Positions 20,928 through 42,628 of a stretch of 64,000 nucleotides of DNA are shown piece after piece (the stretch's first letter is position 1; the number at the start of each line of letters is the position of its first letter). The notes under the pieces were generated by a model. It was not told the DNA's origin. It was given only the letters and a program-made list of their open reading frames with translations, and did no database searches. Source of the DNA: Alphaproteobacteria bacterium (GTDB lineage: Bacteria; Pseudomonadota; Alphaproteobacteria; JACZXZ01); assembly GCA_035509415.1 (NCBI GenBank), contig DATJLQ010000096.1, positions 24,919 to 88,918 on the forward strand. The letters run 5' to 3'. The position numbers and the translations under genes were made by a program.

Positions 20928-20962
20928 CGTCGCGACGGGCTCCTTCTGGGGGTCGCTTGAGG

Positions 20963-22993: not shown

Positions 22994-24187
<1,194 letters not shown>

Positions 24188-24202
24188 TCGAACGCCGCAC
24201 GC

Positions 24203-25336: not shown

Positions 25337-25370
25337 GATCGACTCCTCTGTTGAATGTTCATCCCCGTTC

Positions 25371-26207: not shown

Positions 26208-27136
26208 CGACGGCCTCCCGAAACGACCTGCTGCAGCCCGATCCAGCGCCCGAACACGATGAGAAGCAGCAGCACGACCCCGAACAGCACGACGGACAGC
26301 GCGGCGCCGAACGCCCAATTGTTGGTCGAGATGTATTGAATCGCGATCATGTTGCTGTAGAGGATGCCCGACGTCCCGCCCAGAAGCTGCGGCGTCACGT
26401 AGGCGCTGACCGAAAGGAGAAAGACCATGAGCGAGCCCGACAGCACGCCGGGCCAGCTGAGCGGAAGAATGACGCGCCAGAAGATCCAAAACGGCCGCGC
26501 GCCGAGGTCCGCCGCCGCCTCGATCAGCCGCGGGTCGATCTTGTCGATCGAGAGATAGATCGGCAGGGTCATGAACAGCGTATAGACGTAGATCAGGCCG
26601 ATATAGACCGCGCCGCTATCGTAGAGCAGCCAGCCGATCGGGTGGTCGATGAGCCCGAGGTAAAGCAAAAACTGATTGATCGCGCCCGTGGTCCCGAGGA
26701 TGGGCAGCCAAACGAAGGTGCGCACCACGTAGCTGGTCCAGAACGGCAGGAACAGCAGCAGCACGAACCCCGTCTTGGCGGTGCCCCGGAGGGTCGCGAG
26801 GAGATAGGCGATCGGATACGAGATCGCGAGCGAGATCAGGGTCGTGACGAACGATACCCATAGGGTCTTGACGAGAAGGTTGCGGTAGAACGGCGTCGCC
26901 AAGGCCTGGGCGTAGTTGCCGAACTGGAAAGCGGGCGTCGTGCCGAAGATCGTCGAGGTCCAGAACGACATCGCGATCGCGAAGCCGAACGGAACGAGGA
27001 CGAAGACCGCGAGCCAGATCAGCCCCGGCGAGAGCATCAAAAAGGCGGTGCGGCGGGCGCGGCGACGCGCGGCGCCGGTCGCCGCGGTCGGCAACGTGAG
27101 CGACACATGTCCCGTATCCGCCGCCATCGACGCCAT
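26204..27136 (-). CDS. ABC transporter permease (PotB-like)
   Basis: Polytopic permease, IEAAADLGARPFWIFWRVILP. Confidence 0.85.
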   Translation of the reverse strand: MASMAADTGHVSLTLPTAATGAARRRARRTAFLMLSPGLIWLAVFVLVPFGFAIAMSFWTSTIFGTTPAFQFGNYAQALATPFYRNLLVKTLWVSFVTTLISLAISYPIAYLLATLRGTAKTGFVLLLFLPFWTSYVVRTFVWLPILGTTGAINQFLLYLGLIDHPIGWLLYDSGAVYIGLIYVYTLFMTLPIYLSIDKIDPRLIEAAADLGARPFWIFWRVILPLSWPGVLSGSLMVFLLSVSAYVTPQLLGGTSGILYSNMIAIQYISTNNWAFGAALSVVLFGVVLLLLIVFGRWIGLQQVVSGGRR

Positions 27137-27177
27137 CCCTCACCCACCCATCCTTCGCACTCCGATCATTGGGTTCG

Positions 27178-28995
27178 TCATGTCCGCCGCCCGCGCGGCA
27201 CTTTCCCGGAAACGTCGTCGGACGCCGTCTTGGCTCCCCGCATCGTCCCGGTGCGCGCGCGATCGACCTCGAATGTCGCGGCATCGAGCGCGACGCCGTA
27301 ATCCGTCGCCGCCGCCTCGACCGTGACGCGGCCCTCGCGCGCATCCTCGACAACCGATTCGACGGCGCGCTCGAACGGATCGCCGAAACCCCCGCCGCCG
27401 CCGAGCTGGAAGCGAATCCGGTCGCCCGGCAGGAAGCGGCGGTAAATGCCATGCTCGATCGTCTTGCCGTTGAGCCAGAGCCCGCCGCCACGCCCGTTGC
27501 GGCCGCCGCAGCGGCCCTGGAGGGGAAAGTCGCCGCTCTCGCCGCGCCCGTTGAGGCGAACCGAGCCTTCGACGAAATCCTGCGGCCCCTGCGCGCCGCC
27601 CAGAATCTCGAATTCGACCGACTGGCCGAGACCGCCGCGCTGCCGGCCCGGTCCGCCCGAATCCGCGACCAGCTCCTTCTCGAGAAACCGCACCGGCGCC
27701 TCGTTCTCGGTGACCTCGATCGGGATGTTGCGCGTGTTGTTCGGGAAGCACAGGGTCGGATAGCCGTCGTATTTGTGGCTCGCGCCGAAACCGCCGCTAT
27801 GCTGTTGGATCGCGAGGAAGGAGCGGCCGTCGCGCCGCCACTTGCCGTGGAGATAAATCTCGTTGGCGGGACAGCCGCCGTTTGCCGCGAGCACGGCCTC
27901 GGGCATCGCCTTCTCGAGCGCGCCGAAGATGATCTCGGGATAGAGGTGGGAGATCATGGTACGGCCCCAAGTCGCCGCCGGGGGTCGGCAGTTCACGACG
28001 GAGCCCAGCGGCGCGACGATCTCGATCGGGCGCATGCAGCCGTCGTTGTTCGGCACCTCCGGATCGAACGCAAGCTTGATCGGATAGGCGCTATAGGAGC
28101 GCGTCGAGTTGAGGGTACAGTTGATCGCGGCGCCGACCTCGCCCGAGGTGCCCGTGTAGTCGATCGTCACGCGGCCGTCCTTGATCGTGACCGCCGCCTT
28201 GATGCGGACCTCGTCCGGGCAATGGGGGATGCGCGGCAGCACCACTTCGTTGTGGTAGGTTCCCTCGGGCAGCCGCCGCAACTTCGCGCGCAGGCTGCTT
28301 TCGGTGCGCTCGATGATCTCGCGGCCGAGCTCCTCGAGCCCGTCGAGCTGGTACTCGTCGAGGAGGCGCAGGAGGCCCTGGGTGCATACATGGTTGGCGA
28401 CCAGCTGGGCACGCAGGTCGCCCAGCACCTTGTCGGGCACCCGGATGTTCGCCTTCATGAACTCGAAGATCGCCCGGTTGAGGCGCCCCGCCTCGTACAG
28501 CTTGAGGATCGGGATCTTGAGCCCCTCCTCGTAGATGTTCTTCGACTCGAGCGTCGACATGCGTCCACCCATGTCGAGATGGTGGACGATGCAGAGCGTG
28601 TAACCGACGGCGCGCCCGCCGTGGAAGATCGGCGAGGCGACCGATACGTCGATCAGATGGCCGCTCGCGAGCCACGGATCGTTCGTGATGAGAACGTCGC
28701 CCGGCTCAAGCGTTTCCGGCGGATGCGCCTTGAGGAAGTTGCGCATCACCTCGGGCACGATACCGAGGAAGCCGGCGGTCGTGACCGTCGAATGGGAAAG
28801 CATCCTGCCGTCGCGGTCGAACAGCGCGCAGCAGAAATCGTGATACTCCTTGACCGACGGGGTGTAGGCCGTGCGCATCAATCCGGTCGCCGCCTCGTCG
28901 ACGATCGAGATCAGGCGGTTCCAGAGCACTTGGATCGTCACCGCGTCGAGCAGGTTCGAGCGATTGCGCGATGAGGGAATTGAAACGGCGCTCAT
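27178..28995 (-). CDS. hyuB: hydantoinase B / oxoprolinase-family subunit (HyuB)
   Basis: 605 aa; VLWNRLISIVDEAATGLMRTAYTPSVKEYHDF...GGGGFGDP; Hydantoinase_B fold. Confidence 0.9.
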   Translation of the reverse strand: MSAVSIPSSRNRSNLLDAVTIQVLWNRLISIVDEAATGLMRTAYTPSVKEYHDFCCALFDRDGRMLSHSTVTTAGFLGIVPEVMRNFLKAHPPETLEPGDVLITNDPWLASGHLIDVSVASPIFHGGRAVGYTLCIVHHLDMGGRMSTLESKNIYEEGLKIPILKLYEAGRLNRAIFEFMKANIRVPDKVLGDLRAQLVANHVCTQGLLRLLDEYQLDGLEELGREIIERTESSLRAKLRRLPEGTYHNEVVLPRIPHCPDEVRIKAAVTIKDGRVTIDYTGTSGEVGAAINCTLNSTRSYSAYPIKLAFDPEVPNNDGCMRPIEIVAPLGSVVNCRPPAATWGRTMISHLYPEIIFGALEKAMPEAVLAANGGCPANEIYLHGKWRRDGRSFLAIQQHSGGFGASHKYDGYPTLCFPNNTRNIPIEVTENEAPVRFLEKELVADSGGPGRQRGGLGQSVEFEILGGAQGPQDFVEGSVRLNGRGESGDFPLQGRCGGRNGRGGGLWLNGKTIEHGIYRRFLPGDRIRFQLGGGGGFGDPFERAVESVVEDAREGRVTVEAAATDYGVALDAATFEVDRARTGTMRGAKTASDDVSGKVPRGRRT

Positions 28996-28998
28996 CCT

Positions 28999-31140
28999 TC
29001 AGTTCTCCACGACGGTCGCTTCGGGACCCAACGCCCCCTTACCGGCGGGCAAACCCGGCCGGACCTCAACGTCGAGGCAGCCATAGGCATCGACCACGAC
29101 GCGGTCGCCGATACCGATGATGGTCGTCGATTCGCGCTCCTCGATCACCGCCGGACCGACCAAGATCTGGCCGACCTGAAGGGACGACCGCTCGAACACG
29201 GGTGCGCGCCGGAACGCCGCGCTGCCGACGACGTAGATGTCCCGGAATGCCTTGGGCGCCGCGTCGGTCATGGCGGCCGGCCGCGAGATGGCTGGCGCGC
29301 GCACGCGTCGCTGGAGCTGGATCCGGGCGGTTGCGACCTCGATCGAGTTTTCCTCGTCGACCTTGCCGTAGAGCGTCGCATAAAGCTCGAGGAAGGCTGC
29401 GCTCCACGCCGCAACCGCAGTCTCGGCCTGGATCGGCCGCTCGATCGGAATTTCCAGCGAATAATCCTGTCCCGCGTAGCGCAAGTCGAGGAAGCGCATG
29501 TACTGCGCCTCGGAGAGTTCGGGCAGGAGTGCTGCGGCATCGCGCTCGATCTCCTCGAAGATCGTTTCCAGCGCCTCGAGATCGACGGTCGTGAGCAACG
29601 CGCCCACCGTGCGGCTGCGCTCGATCGCCATCGGCGCCGCGAGCAGGCCGAGAGACGACATGACGCCCGAGAATGGCGGGATCACGACGCGTCCGATTCC
29701 GAGCTTGCGCGCGAGCTCGACCGCGTGCACCGGGCCCGCGCCGCCCGAGGCGACCAGGGCGAGATCGCCGCTCGATTTCCCCTTGTCGGTGACGTAGATG
29801 CGCGCCGCCGCCGCCATGGTTTCGCTCACCAGGCCGAAGATGCCTGCGGCTGCGGCGGCGATATCGAGTCCGGTCGGGACGGCGATCTTGGTCTTGATCG
29901 CGCGCTCGGCGGCGGCGCGATCGAGCGGCATCTCGCCGCCGAGAAAATAATCCGGATTGAGATAACCGAGCACGAGATCGGCGTCGGTCACGGTCGGATC
30001 CTTACCGCCGAGCCCGTAGCATGCCGGCCCCGGATCCGAGGCGGCGCTATTGGGCCCGACCTGCAGCAGATCGAGATCGTTCACGCGCGCGATGCTGCCG
30101 CCGCCGGCGCCGATTTCGAGCAGATCGTAAACCGGGAGCGAGACCGGATATCCGCTGCCGGCCTTGAATCGGTGCACGCGGCCGACCTCGAACGAGCGCG
30201 TGCGCGCGGCGTGACCGTTCTCGATGATGCAGAGCTTCGCCGTCGTGCCGCCCATGTCGAAGGCGAGCATGGTGTCGAGGCCGATCAGGCGGCCGAAGAA
30301 GCCGACCGCCTCGACGCCCGCGGCCGGTCCGGATTCGAGGATCTGGACCGGGAAACGCTTTGCGGTGTCGACCGTCGCGGTGCCGCCGTTGGACAGCATG
30401 AGGAACAGACTGCGTGCGAAGCCGCGCTTTTTGAGGCCCTCGTCGAGCCGCTCGATATAGGCGCTCGCGGTGCGCTTCACGTAAGCGTCGATCACCGTGG
30501 TCGAGGTGCGCTCGAATTCCTTGGGCTCCGGCAAGACCTCGTGGGAAAGCGAGAGATCGACGCCCGGGAGTTCGGCGGCCAGGATTTCGGCAGCGCGCTT
30601 CTCGTTCGCAGGATTCCGATAGGAATGGAGGAAGCAAATCGCGACCGCCTCGACCCCCTCGCGCCGGAACAGGGCCGCCGCTTCTTTCAGCTCCTGCTCA
30701 TTCACCGCCTCGGTCACGCTGCCGTCGGAGAGGGTGCGCTCGGATATGCCGACCCTCAGCCGGCGCGGCACGAGCGGCGGCGGGAACCGGATGAACATGT
30801 CGAAGACGGTGTATCGAACCTCGCGCCCGATCTCGAGGATATCGCGGAAGCCCTTGGTGGTGATCAGCCCGGTACGGCTGCCCTTGCCCTCGAGGATCAC
30901 GTTGGTCACGAGAGTGGTCGCGTGGATGATGTCGTTGGTCGTAGGCAGGAGATCGGGCAAGGCCTCGGCGAGCCGCTTGAGGCCGGCATAGACCGCCAAA
31001 TCCGGCCGCTCGGGCGTGGTGAGCGTCTTTTCGATCCGAATCCGGCCGCTCGACTGGTCGGTCACCGTGAAGTCGGTGAACGTCCCGCCGATGTCGATGC
31101 CGATACGATATTTGCCGCTTGCCACCCGCGCATCCAACAT
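28999..31140 (-). CDS. hyuA: hydantoinase A / oxoprolinase-family ATPase subunit (HyuA)
   Basis: MLDARVASGKYRIGIDIGGTFTDF... sugar-kinase/ASKHA-like N-terminus and hydantoinase_A domains. Start ATG at 31140. Confidence 0.9.
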   Translation of the reverse strand: MLDARVASGKYRIGIDIGGTFTDFTVTDQSSGRIRIEKTLTTPERPDLAVYAGLKRLAEALPDLLPTTNDIIHATTLVTNVILEGKGSRTGLITTKGFRDILEIGREVRYTVFDMFIRFPPPLVPRRLRVGISERTLSDGSVTEAVNEQELKEAAALFRREGVEAVAICFLHSYRNPANEKRAAEILAAELPGVDLSLSHEVLPEPKEFERTSTTVIDAYVKRTASAYIERLDEGLKKRGFARSLFLMLSNGGTATVDTAKRFPVQILESGPAAGVEAVGFFGRLIGLDTMLAFDMGGTTAKLCIIENGHAARTRSFEVGRVHRFKAGSGYPVSLPVYDLLEIGAGGGSIARVNDLDLLQVGPNSAASDPGPACYGLGGKDPTVTDADLVLGYLNPDYFLGGEMPLDRAAAERAIKTKIAVPTGLDIAAAAAGIFGLVSETMAAAARIYVTDKGKSSGDLALVASGGAGPVHAVELARKLGIGRVVIPPFSGVMSSLGLLAAPMAIERSRTVGALLTTVDLEALETIFEEIERDAAALLPELSEAQYMRFLDLRYAGQDYSLEIPIERPIQAETAVAAWSAAFLELYATLYGKVDEENSIEVATARIQLQRRVRAPAISRPAAMTDAAPKAFRDIYVVGSAAFRRAPVFERSSLQVGQILVGPAVIEERESTTIIGIGDRVVVDAYGCLDVEVRPGLPAGKGALGPEATVVEN

Positions 31141-31167
31141 GTTCAATATTGTTGAACAGCACTGTTC
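31141..31167. promoter_or_regulatory. two overlapping inverted repeats GTTCAA-TATTG-TTGAAC and GAACAG-CA-CTGTTC at the divergent hyuA / Rieske promoter; candidate operator
   Basis: Read from the sequence. Starts immediately at the minus-strand hyuA start codon, about 90 bp upstream of the Rieske alpha ATG. The half-site resembles the palindrome at 11201. Confidence 0.35.
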
Positions 31168-31252
31168 CATAAGCCAGGATGGGACGCAAGCGCGAATCGC
31201 GCCATGTCGGAACCGCCGGCGGCCGGCACGGCGCGTGGAAGGAGGGGCGCAC

Positions 31253-32524
31253 ATGACGCTCGTCAATGACCCGGGATTCACGGTCGACTGGCCGCGCGAC
31301 GATTATTCGCGCATTCCCTACTGGCTGTTCCACGATCCCAAGGTCTACGAACTGGAGCGCGCGCGCATCTTCCGCGGCCCGGTATGGAATTATCTTGGGC
31401 TCGAGGCGGAGATCCCGAAGCCCGACGATTTCCGCACCACCTTCGTGGGCGACATTCCGGTCGTCGTCGCTCGCGCCGGCGACGGCACGGTCCACGCGTT
31501 CGTCAACCGCTGCGCCCACCGCGGCGCCCAGATCGTCCGCACGACGCACGGCAGCGCCAAGGATTTCGTCTGCATTTATCATCGCTGGTGCTATTCGCTC
31601 GAAGGCGATCTCATCGGCATCCCGTTCAAGCGCGGCCTCAAGGGCCAGGGCGGCATGGCCGATTTCGACATGGCGGCGAACGGCCCCGAGAAGCTGCGCG
31701 TGGCGAGCCTGAGCGGCATGATATTCGGCACTTTCTCCGCCCATACCGAGCCGCTGGAGGGTTACCTGGGCGCCTTCGGTTGCGGCCTGATCGAGCGCCT
31801 GCTGGGGAAGCCGATCCGCATCTATGGCTACCAGCGCCAGGTGATTCACGCGAACTGGAAATTCTACGCGGAGAACTTGCGCGATACCTACCATGCGAGC
31901 CTGCTGCACACCTTCCTGTCGTCCTACGGCATCGATCGGGCGACCCAGAAAGGGGGCGTCAAGATGGACGGCCGCCACCGCCACAGCATGAATTATGCCT
32001 TCGCGGCGACCGACGGCCAGGATGAGGCGCGCGCCGCCTATGCCGGCAATTCGGGCGTCTCTCTCGATCGGCTCAAGCTGCGCGACGGCTCCCTGATGCG
32101 CTACGTGCCGGAGTTCGAGGACGGCATGAACCTCGCGACCCCGACATTCTTCCCCAATGTCCTGCTGATCCAGGTCAACAACGTCCTCTCGACGCGCCAG
32201 ATCCGGCCGAAGGGCAAGGACGCGTTCGAGGTGTTCCAGACCCTGTTCGGCTATGCCGACGACGACGAGGCCATGACGCGCCATCGCCTGAAGCAGTCGA
32301 ACCTGGTTGGGCCGGCGGGCTATGTCTCGATGGAGGACGGCGAGGCGATCGAGCTCGCCCACCGCGCGAGCGCCTCCTCGCAGGGCTTTACCTCCGTGAT
32401 CGAGATGGGAGGGCGCGGGCCGATCCGCGACCTCGAGCACCGGGTTACCGACGTGCCGGTGCGCGGCTTCTGGTCTTATTGGTCGGAGCTCATGGGCGTC
32501 GAGCCCGTTTGCGGGGTGCGATGA
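31253..32524 (+). CDS. Rieske non-heme iron ring-hydroxylating oxygenase, alpha subunit
   Basis: Rieske CAHRG...(17)...CIYHRW and mononuclear iron site DTYHASLLH. Shine-Dalgarno GGAAGGAGGGG before the ATG. Confidence 0.9.
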   Translation: MTLVNDPGFTVDWPRDDYSRIPYWLFHDPKVYELERARIFRGPVWNYLGLEAEIPKPDDFRTTFVGDIPVVVARAGDGTVHAFVNRCAHRGAQIVRTTHGSAKDFVCIYHRWCYSLEGDLIGIPFKRGLKGQGGMADFDMAANGPEKLRVASLSGMIFGTFSAHTEPLEGYLGAFGCGLIERLLGKPIRIYGYQRQVIHANWKFYAENLRDTYHASLLHTFLSSYGIDRATQKGGVKMDGRHRHSMNYAFAATDGQDEARAAYAGNSGVSLDRLKLRDGSLMRYVPEFEDGMNLATPTFFPNVLLIQVNNVLSTRQIRPKGKDAFEVFQTLFGYADDDEAMTRHRLKQSNLVGPAGYVSMEDGEAIELAHRASASSQGFTSVIEMGGRGPIRDLEHRVTDVPVRGFWSYWSELMGVEPVCGVR

Positions 32525-32988
32525 GCCGGCGCGAGGCGGTGCGCGATCTGGTCGTCGAATATGGCGCGCTCATCGACGCGGACCGTCTCGAGGATTGGGT
32601 CGAGCTCTTCGCTTCCGACTGCCGGTACAGCGTCATCAGTGCGGAAAATCTGGCGCAAGATCTGCCGCAAACGCTCATGGCGTGCGACAGCAAGGACATG
32701 CTGCGCGATCGGGTGACCGCGTACCGGGAAGTGAACGAATACAATTTCCACAGCGACCGCCACGTAATCGGCGGCGTGCGCTTCCGCGACGAGAGCACGG
32801 GCGGTCCCTGGCGCATCGAGGCGAACTACAGCCTGTTCCAGACCGACGTGGAGGGAGTCACGCGCTTGTTTCTCGTCGGTCAGTACGACATGTCGGTCGT
32901 GTTCGAGGACGAGCGGCCGCGCTTTGCCGATGTGCGCGTGGTGGTCGACACTGCCTCGATCCCGACCCTCCTCGCGACACCGATATAA
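32521..32988 (+). CDS. ring-hydroxylating oxygenase beta subunit (NTF2/SnoaL-like)
   Basis: MSRREAVRDLVVEYGALIDADRLEDWVELFASDCRY... is a typical small subunit. ATGA overlap with the alpha stop. Confidence 0.8.
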   Translation: MSRREAVRDLVVEYGALIDADRLEDWVELFASDCRYSVISAENLAQDLPQTLMACDSKDMLRDRVTAYREVNEYNFHSDRHVIGGVRFRDESTGGPWRIEANYSLFQTDVEGVTRLFLVGQYDMSVVFEDERPRFADVRVVVDTASIPTLLATPI

Positions 32989-33079
32989 GTGTCCACGACG
33001 ACGGCGCTTCTCTCGAGACGGTTCTCGATCCGCGCCCAACCTGCCTAGGCCTCGACGACGCACCCCTCTTGGAAACCTC

Positions 33080-35155
33080 ATGACTTCTGGACGCACCCTG
33101 GACAATCCTCGACAGCCGAGCGAGCGCGCGGTCGATCCCGTGACGCTTCAGGTCTTTCAACAGCGCTTGATCGGCATCGTGCGCGAGATGCGCGCGACCA
33201 TGGTCCATTCCGCCTTCTCGGCCGCGATTTGCGAGCTGTTCGATCTCTCCTGCGCGCTCTTGAGCGCGCGCGGCGAGTTGATCGTCCAGTCCGAGGACAA
33301 CCCGCAGCACATTTTCCCGCTCCTCTGGTCGGCCCAGGAAGTGATGCGCCGCTACGGCAACGACATACGGCCCGACGACGTTTTCCTCCACAACGACCCC
33401 TACGAGGGCGGAACACACCTCAACGACATCGCGATCATCGTACCCTTTTTCGTCGACGGCCAGCTCGTTGCATTCCCGGTTGTGCGCGCTCATTGGGAGG
33501 ATGTCGGCGGCTCGACGCACGGCAGCATATCGGGCCAGAACCGCGAGATCTTCCAGGAAGGCCTGCGCATCCCGCTCACGCGCCTCAAGGCGAACTCGCC
33601 CGAGTTCGAGGCGTTCATGGCGCTGCTGTTCTCGAACATGCGCATTCCCAACGAGCGCCGCGGCGATTTCGACGCCATGATGGGGACTTCCGAGATCGGG
33701 CGGCGCCGGCTCGCCGAGGTCGTGGACCGCTATGGCGTGGGCCAGGTGCTGCGCTTCATGGACCGACTCCTCGACCAGGAGGAGACGCGCATGAGGGCAA
33801 AATTGAGGGCGCTTCCCGAGGGCGCTTTCACGTTCGAGAACTATCTCGATCCTCGGCCCGATCTCGGCGTGGCCCAGAAGATCGCCGTGCGCGTCGCGAT
33901 CGCGGACGGCCGCATCGAGGTTTCGTTCGACGGCTCGAGTCCCCAGATCGACGGACCCTTCAATATCGGCCCCTCGGGCGCGCCGACCGGCGTCTTTATC
34001 ATCGCGAAGTCGCTGCTCGACCCGAAAGGACCGGTCAATTCCGGGAGCTTCCGGCCCATTTCGGTCGACGCGCCGGCGGGCTCGTTCGTCAATGCCGTCT
34101 ACCCCGCTGCGGTGGGCGCCATGGGCGACGTCCGGCGGTCCTTGGAAAGCACCGTCATGGCGGCCCTGGCATCGGTCCTGCCCGACCGCGTCACCGGCGA
34201 CACGAAGGGCACGTCGAACCAGCTTTTGATCGGCGGACGCCGGCCTGGCACCGGCCATGCCTGGCTTCTTTACGAGGCGCCTGCCGGCGGTACCGGCGGC
34301 TTCGAGGGCGGCGACGGCAATTCCACCTTGCGCACATTTGCCGAGGGCGACTTCAGCGCGGTCCAGCCGGTCGAGGCGATCGAGCAGAAATTTCCGCTGC
34401 GCGTCGAGGAAGTGTGTCTGCGCGCCGATTCCGCGGGCGACGGCAAATATCGCGGCGGTCTCGGCATGCGTCGCGTGATCCGCCTTCTGGTCGAGAGCGC
34501 GTCCCTGTCGAGCGTGTCGGACAAGAACGTGGTCCCGCCTTATGGACTTTTCGGCGGCACCGGTGGTGCCCAGAACAAAATCTCGGTCGAGCGCGGCGGC
34601 AAATCGATCGCACCGTCGCGGGCGCCGGGCAAGATCTCCAACTTCCACCTGCGCAAGGACGACCGCGTCATCTTCGAGTCGAGCGGCGGCGGCGGCTATG
34701 GCGATCCGCTCGATCGCGATCCGGACGACGTCGCGCGCGACGTGAGCCTGGGATACGTCTCCGCGTCGCGGGCGCGCCAGGTCTATGGCGTCGTCGTGAG
34801 CCGCGGCAAAGCATCGGCCGCGAAGACCGGCGTCCGGCGCCGCGCGCTTCTGAACGCGCGCGTGACTTTATCGGTTGCGCTCGGCGAGGTACCGGCAAAT
34901 GCGCTCAAGCTGCCGACCGCGCTTGTCCATCCCGCGACTGCGCGCAAGGCAAACTTGCGCGCGGGCCAGATCGGCGAACTCCTTTCGGCGCGCAAGCCCG
35001 CCGCTCCCATTCGGATCGTGATCGCGACATCGGCCGGGCTCGCGCGCGGCAAGATCGTCGTCGCGAGGAGCGCGGCGCGCTTTCACGGATGGGCATCGGG
35101 CCACGGCGTGCGGTTGCGCGCGCTGCCGCGGCACGTCGATGCGTTTCAGGAGTGA
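33080..35155 (+). CDS. hyuB: hydantoinase B / oxoprolinase-family subunit (HyuB) with approx 130-aa Ala/Arg-rich C-terminal extension
   Basis: Core like the minus-strand HyuB (VFQQRLIGIVREMRATMVHSAFS...GGGGYGDPLDRDP), then extra residues ...GKIVVARSAARFHGWASGHGVRLRAL. Total 692 aa versus 605 aa for the paralog. Confidence 0.82.
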   Translation: MTSGRTLDNPRQPSERAVDPVTLQVFQQRLIGIVREMRATMVHSAFSAAICELFDLSCALLSARGELIVQSEDNPQHIFPLLWSAQEVMRRYGNDIRPDDVFLHNDPYEGGTHLNDIAIIVPFFVDGQLVAFPVVRAHWEDVGGSTHGSISGQNREIFQEGLRIPLTRLKANSPEFEAFMALLFSNMRIPNERRGDFDAMMGTSEIGRRRLAEVVDRYGVGQVLRFMDRLLDQEETRMRAKLRALPEGAFTFENYLDPRPDLGVAQKIAVRVAIADGRIEVSFDGSSPQIDGPFNIGPSGAPTGVFIIAKSLLDPKGPVNSGSFRPISVDAPAGSFVNAVYPAAVGAMGDVRRSLESTVMAALASVLPDRVTGDTKGTSNQLLIGGRRPGTGHAWLLYEAPAGGTGGFEGGDGNSTLRTFAEGDFSAVQPVEAIEQKFPLRVEEVCLRADSAGDGKYRGGLGMRRVIRLLVESASLSSVSDKNVVPPYGLFGGTGGAQNKISVERGGKSIAPSRAPGKISNFHLRKDDRVIFESSGGGGYGDPLDRDPDDVARDVSLGYVSASRARQVYGVVVSRGKASAAKTGVRRRALLNARVTLSVALGEVPANALKLPTALVHPATARKANLRAGQIGELLSARKPAAPIRIVIATSAGLARGKIVVARSAARFHGWASGHGVRLRALPRHVDAFQE

Positions 35156-35164
35156 TCGCGCGCC

Positions 35165-37222
35165 ATGCTCGTCCTCGGCATCGACATCGGCGGCACGTTC
35201 ACGGACCTGATCCTCTACGACACCGAGGCGGGGACATTCTCGGCCGGCAAAGTCCCTTCCGTACCCGGACGGCAGTGGGAAGGGCTCGCGGCCGGCCTTG
35301 CGGCACTCGACCTCGATGCGGGTCGACTCGCAAGCGTGGTGCACGGCACCACGGTCGGGACCAACGCAATCCTCGAAGGCAAGACCGCGCGCACGGCGCT
35401 CGTCACCACCAAGGGTTTCCGCGACGTGCTCGAAATCGGGCGCAGCATGCGCTTGACTCCCGGCAGCCTGTTCGACACGCGCTTCAAGCGCCCCGCGCCG
35501 CTGGTGCCGCGCAATCTGCGCCTCGAGCTCAAGGAGCGCATCGGCGCGCGCGGCGAGGTGGTGACGCCGCTCGAGCCGCCCACGCTCGAGGCGCTCGCCC
35601 GCGCGCTGCGCGCGTCGAAGACCGAGGCGGTCGCGGTCTGCCTGATCAATGCGTACGCCAACCCCGATCACGAGAAGCGCGTCGTGGATTTCCTCTCGCA
35701 CGCGAATCTCGACGCCGCAATCTATCCCTCCCACGAGATCTCTCCCGAATATCGCGAATACGAGCGGACTTCGACCACGGTCATCAACGCCGCCGTGAGC
35801 CCGATCATCGACCGATACCTCGAGGCCTTCGAGGGTACGTTGCGCGAGCGGGGCTTCGCCGGCTCGCTGTTCATCATGGCGTCCAATGGCGGCACGCTCC
35901 CGCGCCGTGTCGTGAGCCGCTCGGGCGCGCACACGATCCTTTCCGGGCCCGTGGGCGGCGTCCGGGGGGCGCTTTTGGTCGCGAAATCGATCGGCCGGTC
36001 GCGCGTGATCACGCTCGACATGGGCGGCACCAGCACCGATGTCGCCCTGATCGACGGGCACGAGCCCGAAATGGCCGACGTGACGGTGATCAACGGCATG
36101 CCCTTGCGCCTGCCTCAACTCAACATCGTGACCGTGGGCGCGGGCGGCGGAAGCCTGGCCAAGATCGACGAGGGCGGCGGGGTCGATGTGGGCCCGGAGA
36201 GCGCGGGCGCGCGTCCCGGTCCGGCCTGCTACGGCTTCGGCAATGCCACGCCGACGGTGACCGACGCGAATCTGGCGCTCGGCCGCCTGGGCGTCGAGTT
36301 GATCGGCGGCGCCATGCGCATGCAGCCCGAGCTCGCGACCGCGGCGATCGAGCGCTTGGCGGCGGCGGCCGGCGTCGAGCCCATGCACCTCGCCTCGGGC
36401 ATCGTCGAGATCGCGGTCGCGCGCATGGCGAATGCGATCCGCGAGGTCTCGGTCGAGCAAGGCGCCGACCCGCGCGGCTTCGCGCTGTTCGCCTTCGGCG
36501 GCGCGGGACCGCTGCATGGCTGCGCGGTCGCGTCCGAGCTCGGCATCGCCGAGGTGATCGTGCCGCCGTATCCCGGCCATGTCTGCGCCTATGGGCTGCT
36601 TGCCTCGGAGCTGCGCCAGGATCGCGCACGCACGTGGCTGCGCGCGTTCGCCGATGTCGACCGGAAGACGCTACGGCAGGCGCTCGAGAAGGAGGGCGAT
36701 GCGCTGCGAAAATCGGTTCGTCAGGCGGGCTGGCCCCTCGATAGGACCGACCTCCGCTACGCGCTCGATCTTCGCTATGTGGGGCAGTCCTTCGCGGTAC
36801 GGGTCGAGCTGCGCGGCCTCGCGGATGGGGACATCGAGGCGCTGCCGGCGGATTTCGGCGCGCGCCATGAGGAGCTCTACGGTCATCGCCATACGCGCGG
36901 CATCGAGATCGTGACCCTGCGCGTCACGGCGCGCGCGCCGCGAGCCTTCGGTTTCGACTTGCCGAAGGCGACACCGCCAAGCCGCTCGGGGTCGGGTCCG
37001 CGCGCGAGCGTCTCCCGCTTGCGCCGGATTTACGAGCGTGGAGCGTGGGTGGAGTGCCCGGTCGTCGATCGCGCCGATCTTTCGCCGGGCGACACGCTGG
37101 TTGGCCCCGCGATCGTCGAGGAAATCGGATCGACGACTTTCGTCGAGCGCGGATGGACGATGCGCGTCGAGCCGACTCTCGCGATGGTCCTTACGACGCG
37201 GGCCGAGACCGGGAAAGATTGA
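35165..37222 (+). CDS. hyuA: hydantoinase A / oxoprolinase-family subunit (HyuA)
   Basis: MLVLGIDIGGTFTDLILYD.... Gene order B then A; 10-nt gap after hyuB. Confidence 0.9.
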   Translation: MLVLGIDIGGTFTDLILYDTEAGTFSAGKVPSVPGRQWEGLAAGLAALDLDAGRLASVVHGTTVGTNAILEGKTARTALVTTKGFRDVLEIGRSMRLTPGSLFDTRFKRPAPLVPRNLRLELKERIGARGEVVTPLEPPTLEALARALRASKTEAVAVCLINAYANPDHEKRVVDFLSHANLDAAIYPSHEISPEYREYERTSTTVINAAVSPIIDRYLEAFEGTLRERGFAGSLFIMASNGGTLPRRVVSRSGAHTILSGPVGGVRGALLVAKSIGRSRVITLDMGGTSTDVALIDGHEPEMADVTVINGMPLRLPQLNIVTVGAGGGSLAKIDEGGGVDVGPESAGARPGPACYGFGNATPTVTDANLALGRLGVELIGGAMRMQPELATAAIERLAAAAGVEPMHLASGIVEIAVARMANAIREVSVEQGADPRGFALFAFGGAGPLHGCAVASELGIAEVIVPPYPGHVCAYGLLASELRQDRARTWLRAFADVDRKTLRQALEKEGDALRKSVRQAGWPLDRTDLRYALDLRYVGQSFAVRVELRGLADGDIEALPADFGARHEELYGHRHTRGIEIVTLRVTARAPRAFGFDLPKATPPSRSGSGPRASVSRLRRIYERGAWVECPVVDRADLSPGDTLVGPAIVEEIGSTTFVERGWTMRVEPTLAMVLTTRAETGKD

Positions 37223-37622: not shown

Positions 37623-39221
37623 TCAGCCGAGGAAACTCTCGACCGTCCTGATCGCGCCGTCGAGCGCCACGCCCTCCTCGTCCCTGAGGGCGGCCTCGCG
37701 CAGGCGGCGCGACCACTCGGCCGCGTCTGGACGCCCGACAAGACGGAGCGAGGTCGTGAGCACGCGCTCGAATTTCCCCTGGCCGCGCGCCGCCGTGTCG
37801 GAATAACCCTTCACCAGACGCCGGCAGCGCAAAAGCTCGACCGCGAGCGCATAATCCCGAGGCGCCGTCGCCATCACGGTGTCGAGCCAGCGCTTCCAAT
37901 GGGCGCGTTCGCGCGCGTGGCGCAACGTGCCGCGGCGCCAGCGCTTGAGGCCGCCGAGCGAATACAGGATGAGGAACCAGCCGAGCGTCCCGGTGCGCAC
38001 GCGCCGCCCGCGGTTGACCGACCGGTCGAGTGCGCGCATCAATCGGGGCCGGGCCTCGATGAAGCGGCCGAGCAAGGCGGGCAGCGTGCCGCATACCTCT
38101 TCCATGCGCGGATGCATGAACTCGGTCAGGTGCAGGACCTGGTCCGGTGCCGCGCCAACGTCGCGCCGCACGCGCGCGAACCGGCTCGCGCGGGTCTTGA
38201 GGTCGGCGACGCGGATCACGTCGTCATAGGCCATCGCGACGGCGACGTATTTCGCGGCCTCGCGCGTGAGAGCCAAGGCGTCCGCTCCCGGCGCCTGCAT
38301 CCGGTCGAGGGCAAGCATCGGCTCGAGCGTATCGAGATACTCCGCGCCATAGGCGATATCTTGGAAGTCGACGACGCGGCGCAGCCCGGCTGCGAGCATG
38401 TCATGAACGGATGCCGGAAAGCGCTCGGCAGCTCGCGCGACGAGGGCATCGAAGCTCGGATGCCCGACGGGCGCGAGGGTCGCCGCCGCCCGGCGCTCCG
38501 CGGCCGGATCGGGAGTCTCGAACGTCTGATCGCGGCCCGAGCGCTCGGCACGCGCCGCCTCGAAGCCGAGAGCGAAAGCGCGCAAGCTCGCTTCGACGCC
38601 GACGCCGGTCGCGCGGATGGTCTCCTCGAACGAGGCGCGCTCGAATTGCGTCGCCCCTGAACCCGCGAGGGCCCCGAACATGACCGCGGAGATGACGCTC
38701 CCCGCGCGCGTCGCGAGCGCGGCCATGTCGAAGGCGAAGACGCGCTTCGCCGCCTCGCGCGCCGCGCGGCCGACGGCCGCCGGATCGCCGATCCCGTCGC
38801 CGGGCACCATTTTCTCCTGGACCGCGTAGGCGCGGTGGGTCGAGACGATGAGCGTGGTGCGATCCGGTGTCACGTAGCCGCGCAGGATCGCGCGGCCAGC
38901 TTCCATGAGCTCGGCGCCGATCACCACGTCGACGTCGCCCGGCGCCGGCATGAGCGAGAGCACCGGCCGCCGCGTGCCCAAGCCGCCCGCGGGCATCGGG
39001 ACCATCTCGACGTAATAGACCGTGGCGCCCGTGCGCTGCGCGACGCCCGGCACGGAAGTCGCCTGGACGATCCAGCCCGCGCGTTCGGCGAGTGCCACGA
39101 TCCAGTCCATCAGCACGCCGCCGCCCTGGCCGCCGAGGGCCAAGATCGCGATCGTGAGGGGACGCGTCGGATTGAGCCCGACCCGCCCTCGTTCCCTGGT
39201 CGCAACGTGGATTTCGTTCAT
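37623..39221 (-). CDS. iorB: indolepyruvate:ferredoxin oxidoreductase beta subunit
   Basis: 532 aa; LTIAILALGGQGGGVLMDWIV... is the IorB/2-oxoacid:ferredoxin oxidoreductase gamma-like fold. Confidence 0.8.
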   Translation of the reverse strand: MNEIHVATRERGRVGLNPTRPLTIAILALGGQGGGVLMDWIVALAERAGWIVQATSVPGVAQRTGATVYYVEMVPMPAGGLGTRRPVLSLMPAPGDVDVVIGAELMEAGRAILRGYVTPDRTTLIVSTHRAYAVQEKMVPGDGIGDPAAVGRAAREAAKRVFAFDMAALATRAGSVISAVMFGALAGSGATQFERASFEETIRATGVGVEASLRAFALGFEAARAERSGRDQTFETPDPAAERRAAATLAPVGHPSFDALVARAAERFPASVHDMLAAGLRRVVDFQDIAYGAEYLDTLEPMLALDRMQAPGADALALTREAAKYVAVAMAYDDVIRVADLKTRASRFARVRRDVGAAPDQVLHLTEFMHPRMEEVCGTLPALLGRFIEARPRLMRALDRSVNRGRRVRTGTLGWFLILYSLGGLKRWRRGTLRHARERAHWKRWLDTVMATAPRDYALAVELLRCRRLVKGYSDTAARGQGKFERVLTTSLRLVGRPDAAEWSRRLREAALRDEEGVALDGAIRTVESFLG

Positions 39222-39228
39222 CGCCGGC

Positions 39229-41424
39229 TCAAGCGAAGTCGAGTGCGCGGCGCGCGCGACGGCGCTGGAGGAAGCCGATCGCGCCCCCGCGCAGCCGGGC
39301 GAGGACGCGGTCGAGCCAGGACGGATTGTAAACGATGTCGGCGCGATAGAAGGACGGGCATAGCACCGCCGCCTCCGCCACCTCGCCGCAATTGCCGCAG
39401 CCGACGCAGCTCTCGTCGATCGCGGCGACCGGGTCGTCCTTCAAGGGATCGTCGGTCCGCTTCACCGAAAGGGACGGGCAGCCCGAGAGGCGGATGCAGG
39501 CGTGATCGCCCGTGCATACATCCTCGTCGACGCCGAAGCGTTGGCGCACCGCGCGCGCGCCTTCCTTGACCGCCTTGTTGAAGAGCGGCCGCACCCGACG
39601 CTGCTTGTTGAGCATGCATTCGGAGGAGGCGACGATGACCTTGGGTCCCGGCGCCTTCGAGGTGAGCGCCTCCCGCAGCGTATCGCGCATCTTGGCGACG
39701 TCGTAAGTGCGGTCGATCTGGCGCACCCAATCGACGCCGACCCCTTTGACCGCACGCGCGATCGAGTGGGCCGTCGAGCGCGAGCGATTCTCGGCGCGCG
39801 ACGAGAGGACATCCTGCCCGCCGGTCGCGGCCGAGTAGTTGTTGTCGATCACCAGGGTCACGCCGTCGTGCTTGTTGAAGACGGCATTGCCGATACCCGA
39901 GGTGAGCCCGTTGTGCCAGAAGCCGCCATCGCCCACGACCGAGATCGAGCGCTTGCCGGCCACGACGTTGAAGGCCGAGGCCGAGGCGGGGCCGAGGCCG
40001 TAGCCCATGGTCGTGGTGCCGATGTTGAAGGGCGGCAGCGCCGAGAAAATATGGCAGCCGATGTCGCCAGACACGTGGTGAGGGCCGAGCTCGCGCTCGA
40101 CCAGTTTCATGGCGGCGAACACCGGCCGCTCGGGGCAGCCGACGCAGAAGCCCGGCGGCCGGCCCGGCACCGCCGCTGCGAGGGCCGCGATGCTCTCGCT
40201 CGGGGCCGCGTCGGGCGCGTTCGGCGCACGGAGCGAAGGGGCAAGCAGGCTCGGCCCGCGCTCGGCGAGGAATGCGCGCGCGCCCGCCGCCACGGCCTCC
40301 ACCGTGTATTCGCCCGCCATCGGCAGCACGTCCTTGCCGACGATCGCGGCCCCAACGCCCGCGCGGCGCAGAATCTTGTGGAGCGACTGCTCGATGAAAT
40401 CGGGCTGACCCTCCTCGACCAGCAGCACGGCCTTCTTGCCGCGGCAGAAGTCGGCGAGCTCGTCGTCGATCAAGGGGTAGGTGACGTTCATGACGTAGAG
40501 CGGGAGGCGCGTGGTGCCCCACACGTCGGCGAGGCCCATGGTCTGGAGTGCTCGCAGCACGGTGTTGTACATGCCGCCCTGGAGCACGACGCCGAGCTCC
40601 TCGACGTCGCCCGGGAAGGTCTCGTTGAGCCGGTGGCGCCGCACATAGTCGACGGCGGCGGGCCAACGCTGCTCGATTTTTTCCTTCTCGTGGAGGTAGG
40701 TCGCGGGCGGCAGCACGACGCGGCTCGTGTCCCGCCGCGGCGTCTCCATCGCCTCTCTGAGCGTGAAGCGCGGCGGCCGGTTGTCGCGCGCCGAGAAGCT
40801 TCCATGCACGTGGCAGCCGCGGATGCGCACCTCGAGCATCACCGGCGTGTGCGACGCCTCGGAGAGCTCGAAGCCGTGCTCCACCGCGCGCACGATCGAT
40901 TCGAGGTTGGGGCGCGGATCGAGCAGCCAGATCTGGGACTTCATCGCGAAGGCGTGGCTGCGCTCCTGCATGATCGAGGAGCCTTCGCCGTAATCCTCGC
41001 CCACGATGATGAGCGCACCCCCCTCGACCCCGCCCGAGGCGAGGTTGGCGAGCGCGTCCGATGCGACGTTGGTGCCGACCGGCGACTTGAAGGCGACCGC
41101 ACCCCGGATCGGGTACATGACCGAAGCCGACAGCATCGCCGCCGCCGCGGCCTCGTTGGCGCTCGATTCGAAGTGGACGCCGAGCTCGCCCAAAATCTCC
41201 TGGGCGTCCGACAGCACGTCCATCAAATGCGAGATGGGGGCGCCCTGGTAACCGCCCACATAGCCCACCCCCGCCTCGAGCAGCGCCTTGGTGATCGCGA
41301 GGATGCCTTCGCCGTGGAACTCGGCGCCCGCGCCGAGCTTCAGGTCTGCGATCTCGCGCTTGAAGGAACGTTCCGCCACGCGGGACTCCGTCCGCTGCGC
41401 CGGCCGCGCGACTTTCGCACCCAC
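39229..41424 (-). CDS. iorA: indolepyruvate:ferredoxin oxidoreductase alpha subunit (TPP and 4Fe-4S)
   Basis: 731 aa; TPP motif GDGGFWHNG and a ferredoxin-like cysteine cluster CVGCGNCGEVAEAAVLCP. The 900-aa track ORF extension is antisense to the VOC gene. Confidence 0.85.
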   Translation of the reverse strand: MGAKVARPAQRTESRVAERSFKREIADLKLGAGAEFHGEGILAITKALLEAGVGYVGGYQGAPISHLMDVLSDAQEILGELGVHFESSANEAAAAAMLSASVMYPIRGAVAFKSPVGTNVASDALANLASGGVEGGALIIVGEDYGEGSSIMQERSHAFAMKSQIWLLDPRPNLESIVRAVEHGFELSEASHTPVMLEVRIRGCHVHGSFSARDNRPPRFTLREAMETPRRDTSRVVLPPATYLHEKEKIEQRWPAAVDYVRRHRLNETFPGDVEELGVVLQGGMYNTVLRALQTMGLADVWGTTRLPLYVMNVTYPLIDDELADFCRGKKAVLLVEEGQPDFIEQSLHKILRRAGVGAAIVGKDVLPMAGEYTVEAVAAGARAFLAERGPSLLAPSLRAPNAPDAAPSESIAALAAAVPGRPPGFCVGCPERPVFAAMKLVERELGPHHVSGDIGCHIFSALPPFNIGTTTMGYGLGPASASAFNVVAGKRSISVVGDGGFWHNGLTSGIGNAVFNKHDGVTLVIDNNYSAATGGQDVLSSRAENRSRSTAHSIARAVKGVGVDWVRQIDRTYDVAKMRDTLREALTSKAPGPKVIVASSECMLNKQRRVRPLFNKAVKEGARAVRQRFGVDEDVCTGDHACIRLSGCPSLSVKRTDDPLKDDPVAAIDESCVGCGNCGEVAEAAVLCPSFYRADIVYNPSWLDRVLARLRGGAIGFLQRRRARRALDFA

Positions 41425-41545: not shown

Positions 41546-41947
41546 ATGGCGAAGCTTCGTCACATCGCGATCCAGGTGCCGGACCTCGAGAAGGCGGCCG
41601 GGTTCTACGAAACGGCGCTCGAGCTCAAGCGCGTCGCCCAGACCGAAAGCCCGGTCGGCAACGCGATCATGCTGTCCGACGGCGTGATGAACCTCACCCT
41701 CCTCAATTTCCCCGAGGGCACCAAGGGCGGCATCAACGGGCCCGGCTGGGCGGGGCTGCATCATTTCGGCTTCGTGGTCGAGGACGCCGAGGCGACCGCG
41801 AAGAAGATCGAGCATCTGGGCGGCCGCTTCTTCATGCGCCTCCCCGACTCCTATCCGGGGGTCGACGCCGAGACCAAGTACAAGGACCCGCTCGGCATCG
41901 TGTTCGACGTATCGGAGCACGACTGGACCCAGGCCAAGGAGCCGTGA
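41546..41947 (+). CDS. VOC / glyoxalase-bleomycin-resistance-dioxygenase superfamily protein
   Basis: 133 aa; MAKLRHIAIQVPDLEKAAGFYETALELK... is the classic VOC betaalphabetabetabeta N-terminus. Confidence 0.75.
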   Translation: MAKLRHIAIQVPDLEKAAGFYETALELKRVAQTESPVGNAIMLSDGVMNLTLLNFPEGTKGGINGPGWAGLHHFGFVVEDAEATAKKIEHLGGRFFMRLPDSYPGVDAETKYKDPLGIVFDVSEHDWTQAKEP

Positions 41948-42597: not shown

Positions 42598-42628
42598 TCG
42601 GGCGCCGCGGCTGAGAACGCGGCGAGCG

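Follow-up and report, generated by a model that had tools for sequence, protein, structure and literature searches.

A conserved gene block joining a Rieske oxygenase to two HyuAB pairs, RraA-like and LeuCD-like enzymes in an alphaproteobacterial contig, and its possible role in N-heterocycle degradation

A 64,000-nucleotide stretch of DNA from an Alphaproteobacteria bacterium (GenBank assembly GCA_035509415.1, contig DATJLQ010000096.1; hereafter the window, in whose numbering coordinates are given unless another locus is named) encodes a two-subunit Rieske oxygenase (alpha and beta) followed by a HyuB-HyuA pair of the ATP-dependent hydantoinase family. These four genes (alpha, beta, hyuB1, and hyuA1) are real and co-transcribed, and they form one arm of a conserved block of 17 genes spanning ~22 kb (14806-37222) that further comprises a second, divergent HyuAB pair (HyuA2B2), an ATP-binding cassette (ABC) importer, a tripartite ATP-independent periplasmic (TRAP) importer, regulators, and RraA-like and LeuCD-like enzymes. 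An initial annotation had described the four genes as a tight co-directional unit. The gene calls made here, public gene calls, Pfam matches, and recurrence in relatives all agree with that description, but the unit is not self-contained, since it is conserved as part of the whole block. The divergent HyuA2B2 pair with its ABC importer (22994-31140), the RraA/LeuCD/TRAP/IclR segment (14806-22974), and a second Rieske pair (44504-46380) were omitted from that annotation. The reading we favor, to which we give about even odds, is that the block degrades an imported N-heterocyclic carboxylic acid that forms a lactam. What is seen directly is the set of genes, the families to which their products belong, the conservation of catalytic residues and, for several lineages, synteny and linkage within operons. 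The oxygenase and Hyu genes on which it turns are the following.

31253-32524, + strand: alpha, Rieske oxygenase alpha subunit, 423 amino acids (aa), Pfam Rieske and Ring_hydroxyl_A
32521-32988, + strand: beta, Rieske oxygenase beta subunit, 155 aa, Pfam Ring_hydroxyl_B/SnoaL_4
33080-35155, + strand: HyuB1, 691 aa, Hydantoinase_B (PF02538, 505 bits)
35165-37222, + strand: HyuA1, ATP-binding Hydantoinase_A subunit, 685 aa, Hydant_A_N, Hydantoinase_A and Hydant_A_C
28999-31140, - strand: HyuA2, second ATP-binding Hydantoinase_A subunit, 713 aa, Pfam, divergent from alpha
27178-28995, - strand: HyuB2, second Hydantoinase_B subunit, 605 aa, Pfam

Raw lists of open reading frames (ORFs) are noisy because the DNA of the window is GC-rich (63-72%), and genes were called by an ORF method based on GC content at third codon positions (GC3) together with translation across junctions. 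Independent public gene calls on the source contig (ENA ERZ27256608, k141_4122665, 144,777 bp) give identical boundaries for alpha, beta, hyuB1, and hyuA1, and an exact copy of HyuB1 (P0001) is present in NCBI/ENA; the start of HyuA2 was set by alignment to a related locus (L081) and by the public gene call. The sequence directly before alpha is GGAAGGAGG. Alpha and beta share a 4-bp ATGA overlap, read directly from the junction sequence, and are translationally coupled, while 91 bp separate beta from hyuB1 and 9 bp separate hyuB1 from hyuA1. No terminator-like site or hairpin was found in the beta-hyuB1 gap, although the promoter and terminator consensus scan is uninformative in DNA of such high GC content, and the same gap measures only 10 bp in the closest relative. 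The four genes also occur in the same order, at 79-83% amino acid identity and with a different downstream flank, in JGI 3300044697 and Logan SRR35360253.

The extent of the block is defined by the JGI contig Ga0480559_0000009 (locus L105), in which 16 genes, from dctP to hyuA1, are colinear with the window; L105 ends inside dctP, such that the DctQM gene lies outside the syntenic comparison. Fourteen of these 16 genes encode proteins that are 79-90% identical, and the remaining two, LeuD (67%) and an IclR::NMT1_3 fusion (60%), could be aligned only in part. Beyond hyuA1, proline-racemase-family and ornithine-cyclodeaminase-family genes fill the position that IorAB-family genes hold in the window, and no IorAB genes are present there. 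HyuA1 is thus taken as the right boundary of the unit, with IorAB outside it. In this relative the replacement genes (L081 14443-16450 / L105 1-1552; Pro_racemase and OCD/mu-crystallin families) are followed by an asparaginase gene. Both families typically take part in the metabolism of hydroxyproline or pyrroline-carboxylate, which hints weakly at a possible role for the chemistry of pyrrolidine- or pyrrole-carboxylates.

Linkage of the oxygenase to HyuAB genes extends beyond the syntenic relative. A scan seeded with alpha, with one genome per species, returned 80 loci at 56-69% identity, nearly all of them from Burkholderiales and alphaproteobacterial metagenome-assembled genomes (MAGs). In three of these loci (L026, L053, and L057), orthologues of HyuA2B2 (60-70% identity) and the Pot-like ABC importer stand beside alpha/beta, and RraA and LeuC were also detected there by tblastn. 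Three architectures were distinguished: alpha-beta-HyuB1-HyuA1 divergent from HyuA2B2-ABC (the window and L081); alpha-beta-RraA-LeuC-LeuD-ABC-HyuA'B' on one strand with an apparently fused HyuA2B2 gene divergent from it (L026); and HyuA2-HyuB2-ABC-alpha-beta on one strand (L053 and L057). Moreover, the Hyu-linked alpha subunits fall into at least three separate clades of a neighbor-joining tree of 83 sequences. RraA and LeuC accompany HyuA2B2 in eight of nine independent loci and, among five loci seeded with HyuB2 (L099-L103), four encode RraA, LeuCD, and the ABC importer, two of these also the TRAP importer. Orthologues of HyuB1A1 (47-71% identity; L083-L097) are found in Pot-like ABC operons with no Rieske gene alongside. 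The picture that emerges is of a widespread core of HyuA2B2, ABC importer, RraA, and LeuCD, with or without TRAP, which the Rieske oxygenase has joined at the operon level several times and to which HyuB1A1 is a lineage-specific addition. Across lineages, the adjacent hyuBA pair, which the initial annotation had placed in one operon with the oxygenase, is less often linked to the oxygenase family than is HyuA2B2 with RraA and LeuCD. Both families are large: metagenomes yielded more than 5000 alpha homologs (E<=1e-80) and more than 2000 HyuB2 homologs (E<=1e-100), mostly from uncultured members of the Burkholderiales and Alphaproteobacteria of soil and freshwater. The best 120 of 2165 HyuB2 homologs (E<=1e-100) are 65-88% identical and derive from alpha- and betaproteobacterial MAGs. 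A search of a plasmid database with HyuB2 for a cultured, annotated orthologue gave only matches below 40% identity.

Alpha belongs to the clade of aryl-carboxylate Rieske oxygenases that contains the terephthalate (TphA2), salicylate-5 (NagG), and anthranilate (AndAc) enzymes. Its end-to-end matches in the PDB include TphA2 (7VJU and 7Q04, 366 and 364 bits) and NagG (7C8Z, 339 bits), while the match to IadD (9O71, 103 bits) is confined to the Rieske domain (residues 20-220). The Rieske [2Fe-2S] motif C-x-H...C-x-x-H is present as CAHRGAQIVRTTHGSAKDFVCIYH at 31511-31582 (PF00355, 61 bits). Residues were compared in a sequence alignment of alpha with 82 homologs. The mononuclear iron triad of terephthalate dioxygenase (TPADO; H210, H215, and D356) corresponds to H214, H219, and D362 of alpha and is invariant in all 83 sequences, as is R315, the equivalent of the carboxylate-anchoring arginine (TPADO R309, NagG R323). 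The TPADO R390 equivalent is present in alpha and is arginine in 82 of the 83 family members; the N224 position is occupied by aspartate in alpha and in 78 of the 83, and the S243 position by asparagine in alpha and by asparagine or threonine across the family. All characterized members of the clade act on aryl carboxylates (terephthalate, salicylate, anthranilate, and 6-hydroxypicolinate), the carboxylate being anchored by R309, and the second carboxylate of terephthalate is held in TPADO by N224, S243, and R390 (PMC9060491). As aligned, the residue pattern of alpha is consistent with a substrate that would carry one carboxylate and a second polar or anionic group. Two specific identities were rejected. 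Terephthalate dioxygenase would be expected to combine N224, S243, and R390, of which alpha has aspartate and asparagine at the first two positions. Anthranilate 1,2-dioxygenase AndAcAd is the best NCBIfam match for both subunits, yet the equivalog cutoffs (NF041684/NF041685) are missed by alpha (AndAc, 419.8 bits versus 750) and by beta (AndAd, 133 bits versus 230). TphA2A3 (TPADO; 7Q04/7Q05/7VJU), NagGH, AndAcAd, and 6-hydroxypicolinate 3-monooxygenase thus share with the window oxygenase the Rieske motif, the iron site, the R309 and R390 equivalents, and the alpha/beta pairing, but alpha is orthologous to none of them. Unlike their genes, those of the window have no linked reductase or ferredoxin and no TphB-type diol dehydrogenase nearby, and have ATP-dependent lactamases, not ring-cleavage dioxygenases, as neighbors.

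Within their superfamily, both Hyu pairs group with the lactamases and hydantoinases (caprolactamase, N-methylhydantoinase, and 5-oxoprolinase OplAB) and not with the carboxylases, and ATP-driven lactam hydrolysis is predicted for them from these affinities. Each pair consists of a three-domain HyuA and a full-length Hydantoinase_B subunit (profile positions 1-519 of 519 covered), and identity between one pair and the other is no more than ~27-37%. The N-terminal motif of GIDIGGTFTD type, which we take to be an ASKHA-type phosphate-binding, ATP-binding motif, reads LGIDIGGTFTDL in HyuA1 and IGIDIGGTFTDF in HyuA2. Among PDB entries, HyuA1 matched N-methylhydantoinase (399 bits) and caprolactamase alpha (375 bits) better than the carboxylases (~252 bits), and HyuA2 matched caprolactamase alpha (370 bits) and N-methylhydantoinase (360 bits) with carboxylases lower. 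The contrast is sharpest for the B subunits, which together score 182-240 bits to N-methylhydantoinase/caprolactamase versus 59-122 bits to carboxylases: HyuB1 gave 240 bits to N-methylhydantoinase and 229 to caprolactamase beta versus 122 to acetophenone carboxylase and 89 to acetone carboxylase, and HyuB2 gave 234 bits to N-methylhydantoinase versus at most 95 to carboxylases. Further, no ORF for a carboxylase-type gamma subunit was found in or beside either hyu operon, as the initial annotation had noted for the first of them. That annotation had also left carboxylation open as an alternative to lactam opening; with all four subunits closer to N-methylhydantoinase/caprolactamase, lactam opening coupled to ring hydroxylation is favored and carboxylation is disfavored. 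The window pairs share with CapAB (6YRA) and N-methylhydantoinase (7HK5), their best PDB and NCBIfam matches, the HyuA/HyuB architecture and the lack of a gamma subunit; they differ in being two paralogous pairs and in an extra C-terminal domain of ~110 aa on HyuB1. Identity with caprolactamase itself was rejected, as HyuA1 (468 bits), HyuA2 (512), HyuB1 (270), and HyuB2 (231) all fall below the 1000-bit cutoff of the CapAB equivalogs (NF050156/NF050157), and these scores indicate a substrate different from caprolactam. The caprolactam pathway includes an aminotransferase, whereas the genes here keep company with a Rieske oxygenase, RraA, and LeuCD.

Two structural features of the Hyu proteins were also recorded. 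The C-terminal extension of HyuB1 past the Hydantoinase_B domain (34760-35155) is carried by a subfamily of 665-696 aa among 2228 homologs (E<=1e-50). Its last 131 aa gave no Pfam match at E<=1, and two homologs (P0022 and P0025) have a precomputed match to CDC48_N (PF02359). In L026, a Pseudomonadota MAG, the HyuA2 and HyuB2 orthologues are apparently fused in one ORF of 1306 aa (5735-9655, - strand), which resembles the fused N-methylhydantoinase of PDB entry 7HK5 (1288 aa).

The remaining members of the block, together with the control region between hyuA2 and alpha, are as follows.

31141-31252: divergent control region between hyuA2 and alpha, 112 bp
22994-27127, - strand: PotABCD-like ABC importer (Pfam, NCBIfam, and public gene calls), comprising permeases (26204-27127 and 25371-26207), an SBP_bac_8 binding protein (24203-25336), and an ATPase with TOBE domain (22994-24145)
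21200-22974 (start approximate), + strand: IclR regulator fused to an NMT1_3 (TAXI-like) binding domain (Pfam)
20127-20927, - strand: IclR-family regulator heading the RraA-LeuCD-TRAP operon (Pfam; 81% identical and syntenic in L105)
19498-20124, - strand: RraA-like class II aldolase/decarboxylase (PF03737, 138 bits)
18202-19464, - strand: LeuC-like Fe-S dehydratase subunit, 420 aa (NCBIfam aconitase/isopropylmalate-dehydratase large subunit, 412 bits, cutoff 385)
~17654-18196, - strand: LeuD-like subunit (NCBIfam LeuD/DmdB small subunit, 91 bits)
16595-17653 and ~14806-16590, - strand: TRAP importer, DctP and fused DctQM (Pfam DctP and DctM)

The Pot-like ABC importer is kept next to HyuA2B2 in L026, L053, L057, L099-L101, L103, and L105, and both the IclR::NMT1_3 fusion and the TRAP importer hold the same position in L099, L101, and L105. 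LeuC is 90% identical in L105; enzymes of the LeuCD type hydrate or dehydrate aconitate-like unsaturated polycarboxylates. The RraA-like protein is a relative of the RraA fold; among curated families it comes closest to the LigK/PcmE 4-carboxy-4-hydroxy-2-oxoadipate aldolases, but it is not an orthologue of these. An assignment to them was rejected, given that the equivalog cutoffs are missed (LigK_PcmE TIGR02798, 129 bits versus 304.5; NF006731, 141 bits versus 179). Genes for a ring-cleavage dioxygenase, an aminotransferase, or a deaminase are absent from the conserved block. In the control region, an imperfect inverted repeat, TTGTTGAACAG-CA-CTGTTCCATAA, lies at 31149-31172 within a stretch conserved in L105. 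An operator-motif search found it as a single site in the window; one of the two IclR regulators might use it as its operator. A scan with Rfam for a riboswitch that would name a ligand found none.

From these components a pathway can be proposed for which we infer the substrate class, the order of steps, the spontaneous deamination, and the electron source. The substrate would be imported by the Pot-like ABC importer, the TRAP importer, or both, and an alpha3beta3-type Rieske oxygenase, supplied with electrons by an unlinked Rieske-type ferredoxin and reductase, would hydroxylate the ring and thereby create or modify a 2-oxo (lactam) tautomer. The endocyclic amide bond would then be hydrolyzed by an ATP-dependent HyuAB lactamase. 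The enamine so produced would shed ammonia spontaneously, such that no deaminase, of which the conserved block encodes none, would be needed. Finally, the unsaturated oxo-polycarboxylate left by these steps would be converted by the LeuCD-type hydratase and the RraA/LigK-like aldolase to products of the pyruvate and oxaloacetate type. Each Hyu pair presumably opens a lactam of its own: one the imported compound and the other the product of the oxygenase, or each one of two isomers. This is the most economical reading because HyuAB is the sole ring-opening activity in the block, the RraA protein is LigK-like, and enzymes of the LeuCD type act as hydratases. The logic would parallel that of the lower protocatechuate 4,5-cleavage pathway (PDC hydrolase LigI, OMA hydratase LigJ, and CHA aldolase LigK), in which hydrolysis of a cyclic ester, here a cyclic amide, would be followed by hydration and aldol cleavage. 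The block differs in that its hydratase is a LeuCD-type Fe-S enzyme and not LigJ, its ring opener is HyuAB and not LigI, and a LigAB dioxygenase is missing. A speculative route would begin with pyridine-2,4-dicarboxylate and its 6-oxo-1,6-dihydro derivative, an aza-analogue of 2-pyrone-4,6-dicarboxylate, and would lead through 4-oxalomesaconate and 4-carboxy-4-hydroxy-2-oxoadipate to pyruvate and oxaloacetate. Pyridine-2,4-dicarboxylate would fit every enzyme, but has a low probability of being the specific substrate. It is also conceivable, although we think it rather unlikely, that the block represents an undescribed mode of N-heteroaromatic ring cleavage, in which a TphA2-type Rieske oxygenase converts a pyridine- or pyrrole-type carboxylate to its lactam tautomer, HyuAB spends ATP on hydrolyzing the resonance-stabilized endocyclic amide in place of a ring-cleavage dioxygenase, and LeuCD and a LigK-like aldolase finish the degradation; the whole would then mirror, in aza form, the branch of protocatechuate 4,5-cleavage that runs through 2-pyrone-4,6-dicarboxylate.

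Several observations weigh against this proposal. Rieske genes are found within 10 kb in none of the five HyuB2-seeded loci (L099-L103), which makes the oxygenase look like an accessory step. Likewise, ~94% of the alpha-seeded loci have no Hyu genes and adjoin LIV-type ABC transporters instead, from which it follows that the coupling is facultative or that the partners are usually unlinked. No enzyme of the block has a characterized orthologue, and the NCBIfam equivalog scores of the oxygenase, Hyu, and RraA proteins lie under their cutoffs, the substrate consequently being a guess. The R390 equivalence of alpha, which was read from an alignment and is best regarded as putative, is to be counted here as well. 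The two binding proteins gave no hint of a ligand either, since a PDB search with them returned only remote relatives (sialic-acid and polyamine binders, at most 124 bits).

The same distribution of genes is the main support for a second explanation, namely that the two parts of the block are independent modules that share only an island and its regulation, the oxygenase acting on an ordinary aromatic acid while an unrelated compound, an aliphatic lactam, hydantoin, or imide, is handled by the Hyu/ABC/RraA/LeuCD genes. Most alpha/beta homologs at 56-73% identity lack Hyu neighbors, five of five HyuB2-seeded loci lack Rieske genes, HyuB1A1 orthologues occur elsewhere in ABC operons that lack an oxygenase, and the window is crowded with unrelated catabolic genes. 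Set against this, the linkage takes the form of same-strand operons with gaps of at most 91 bp, in the three architectures and the several alpha clades described above, and L026 has RraA-LeuCD directly after alpha/beta. Moreover, chance adjacency within 10 kb would be expected in ~0.4% of genomes by a rough inferred estimate, whereas ~6% was observed. Independence of the modules is thus possible but, in our view, improbable.

A third explanation keeps the coupling and reverses its order: HyuAB would first open a benzo-fused or aryl lactam or hydantoin (of oxindole or quinolinone type) to an amino-aryl carboxylate, which an AndAc-like oxygenase would then dioxygenate and deaminate. The top NCBIfam model for alpha and beta is indeed the deaminating anthranilate dioxygenase AndAcAd, and a precedent for lactam opening before an aniline dioxygenase has been proposed for the skt skatole cluster of Rhodococcus ruber R1, in which a Rieske oxygenase and a caprolactamase-like HyuBA pair (SktIJ) are co-induced ~1000-fold by an N-heterocycle (bioRxiv 10.1101/2024.12.29.630347). 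The initial annotation knew of no described pairing of a Rieske oxygenase with HyuAB; skt is one, and no other was found in text searches that joined HyuAB-type with Rieske terms. As a heterocycle cluster that unites the two enzyme types, skt also serves as a precedent for the main proposal. In other respects the two clusters differ: the skt oxygenase is of the aniline-dioxygenase type, the host is actinobacterial, and the cluster encodes a two-component flavin monooxygenase, a peptidase, and a short-chain dehydrogenase/reductase but no RraA, LeuCD, Pot-like ABC importer, or TRAP importer. A further point in favor of the reversed order is that IorAB-like genes mark the loci for indole-acetate degradation (iad) of Variovorax and Achromobacter, where a two-subunit Rieske oxygenase is likewise found near IorA/IorB-family genes (PMC9613470). 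Membership of the window in this group, with opening of an oxindole lactam during auxin catabolism, was nonetheless rejected, as alpha is not IadD-like, iad loci contain no Hyu genes, and the adjacency of IorAB is not conserved; the conserved block also lacks the reductase (IadC), an AMP-forming CoA ligase, a thiolase, and a formamidase (IadF-J homologs absent). Against the reversed order more generally stand the absence of a catechol ring-cleavage dioxygenase from the conserved block (L081/L105 do not share the small VOC gene found at 41546-41947), the poor fit of RraA and LeuCD to a route that has no ring-cleavage enzyme, and the AndAc score of 420 bits versus a cutoff of 750. We consider this order of steps quite doubtful.

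In agreement with the initial annotation, no Rieske ferredoxin or reductase gene for the oxygenase was found in the 64 kb, either by Pfam scans of essentially all GC3-supported ORFs or by a six-frame motif scan. The only Rieske motifs detected by these scans are those of two alpha subunits, and the further Fe-S proteins detected are limited to two CoxS-type subunits of molybdenum hydroxylases and the 4Fe-4S ferredoxin domain of IorA. The second alpha subunit (450 aa) belongs, with its beta subunit (~175 aa), to another two-subunit Rieske pair of benzoate/HcaE type (44504-46380, - strand), which adjoins a TetR regulator (43771-44400) and likewise has no ferredoxin or reductase gene; its best NCBIfam matches, BenA (239 bits) and HcaE (213 bits), are both far under cutoff. 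The presence of two partner-less terminal oxygenases within 15 kb suggests that shared electron-transfer components are encoded elsewhere. Nor is the lack of partner genes special to the window, since it is the norm in this oxygenase family. The closest alpha/beta pairs outside the syntenic contig (72-73% identity) also have no linked partner genes and adjoin LIV-type ABC transporters and, of ~84 homologous loci scanned, only L072 has a linked Rieske ferredoxin after beta. Matches to the motif (a regular expression) in the related loci mostly fall in spurious ORFs, with L072 alone holding up. The genes in question are the following.

L072 11734-12039, + strand: Rieske-type ferredoxin of a Ramlibacter MAG, 102 aa (PF00355, 74 bits), directly after alpha/beta
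37623-41379, - strand (window): IorB-family (532 aa; NF006179, 703 bits) and IorA-family (716 aa) genes, convergent with hyuA1

The analogy with NagGH and AndAcAd makes it probable that enzymes of this family draw on a Rieske ferredoxin and reductase encoded apart from them. The initial annotation had pointed instead to IorAB as the only nearby source of reductant, and its position next to the cluster, together with the status of the IorAB-like iadA/iadB genes as hallmark neighbors of the Rieske oxygenase IadDE in iad loci (PMC9613470), lends some appeal to the idea that IorAB supplies reduced ferredoxin to the partner-less oxygenase. This is, however, very unlikely. Neither the syntenic relative nor any of ~100 related loci has IorAB next to its cluster, and IorAB is therefore not a credible dedicated electron donor; the minimal iad pathway, iadC-K2, dispenses with iadAB and is served by a reductase of its own, IadC (PMC12633357); and L072, a member of the family, has a conventional Rieske ferredoxin after beta. 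Weakest of all, and to be dismissed almost entirely, is the notion that the oxygenase produces an aromatic ketone and that the Hyu pairs, as ATP-dependent enzymes of the acetone/acetophenone carboxylase type, carboxylate it. Membership in the same superfamily and weak NCBIfam matches to ApcA, ApcC, and ApcD speak for this notion, but it was rejected on the PDB scores given above, on Apc scores of 106-311 bits that are far from the cutoffs of 1250-1500, and on the absent gamma subunit.

The window contains further catabolic genes outside the conserved block. Between the IorA and TetR genes (41546-43801, + strand) lie genes for a VOC/glyoxalase-fold protein (133 aa), a DUF1989 protein (207 aa; 41974-42597), and an enolase-superfamily (MR_MLE) protein (390 aa), none of which is conserved in the syntenic relative; DUF1989 is often tied to urea or guanidine carboxylase systems. 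Two molybdenum hydroxylases of CoxS/CoxL type (~47560-50465 and ~58540-61344, both + strand) each comprise a 2Fe-2S small subunit and a large subunit, with no FAD (CoxM) subunit detected for either. The second is preceded by CoxG (57145-57714) and a 384-aa protein that has no Pfam match (55990-57144), and a LIV-type ABC transporter and an esterase are encoded between the two (50466-55946). Enzymes of this type often hydroxylate N-heterocycles. On the other side of the block, directly downstream of the DctQM gene and on the same strand, a cytoplasmic molybdopterin S-/N-oxide reductase of the BisC family is encoded (12376-14727, - strand; TIGR00509, 1030 bits, over cutoff), which is not found at that position in L099 and L101; that such an enzyme adjoins a putative cluster for N-heterocycles could be meaningful or mere chance. 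A separate catabolic unit (3690-11205, - strand) comprises a second Pot-like ABC importer (ATPase, binding protein, and two permeases), an ADP-forming acyl-CoA synthetase (816 aa), and an acyl-CoA dehydrogenase, and adjoins another IclR regulator (11445-12515).

The enzyme families of the block are all known, and the chemistry proposed for them would extend known reactions. Their combination (Rieske alpha/beta, two HyuAB pairs, RraA, LeuCD, and two importers) is another matter: no description of it, of the HyuAB/RraA/LeuCD module, or of the union of that module with a Rieske oxygenase was found in the literature searched. Assigning a substrate would annotate thousands of genes and could reveal a route for the mineralization of a common nitrogen-containing ring compound. 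If HyuAB does open a heteroaromatic lactam, an ATP-driven hydrolytic strategy would be added to the oxygenolytic and reductive strategies of ring cleavage, and the core of HyuA2B2, RraA, and LeuCD would represent a widespread, previously unrecognized route in the Alpha- and Betaproteobacteria of soil and freshwater.

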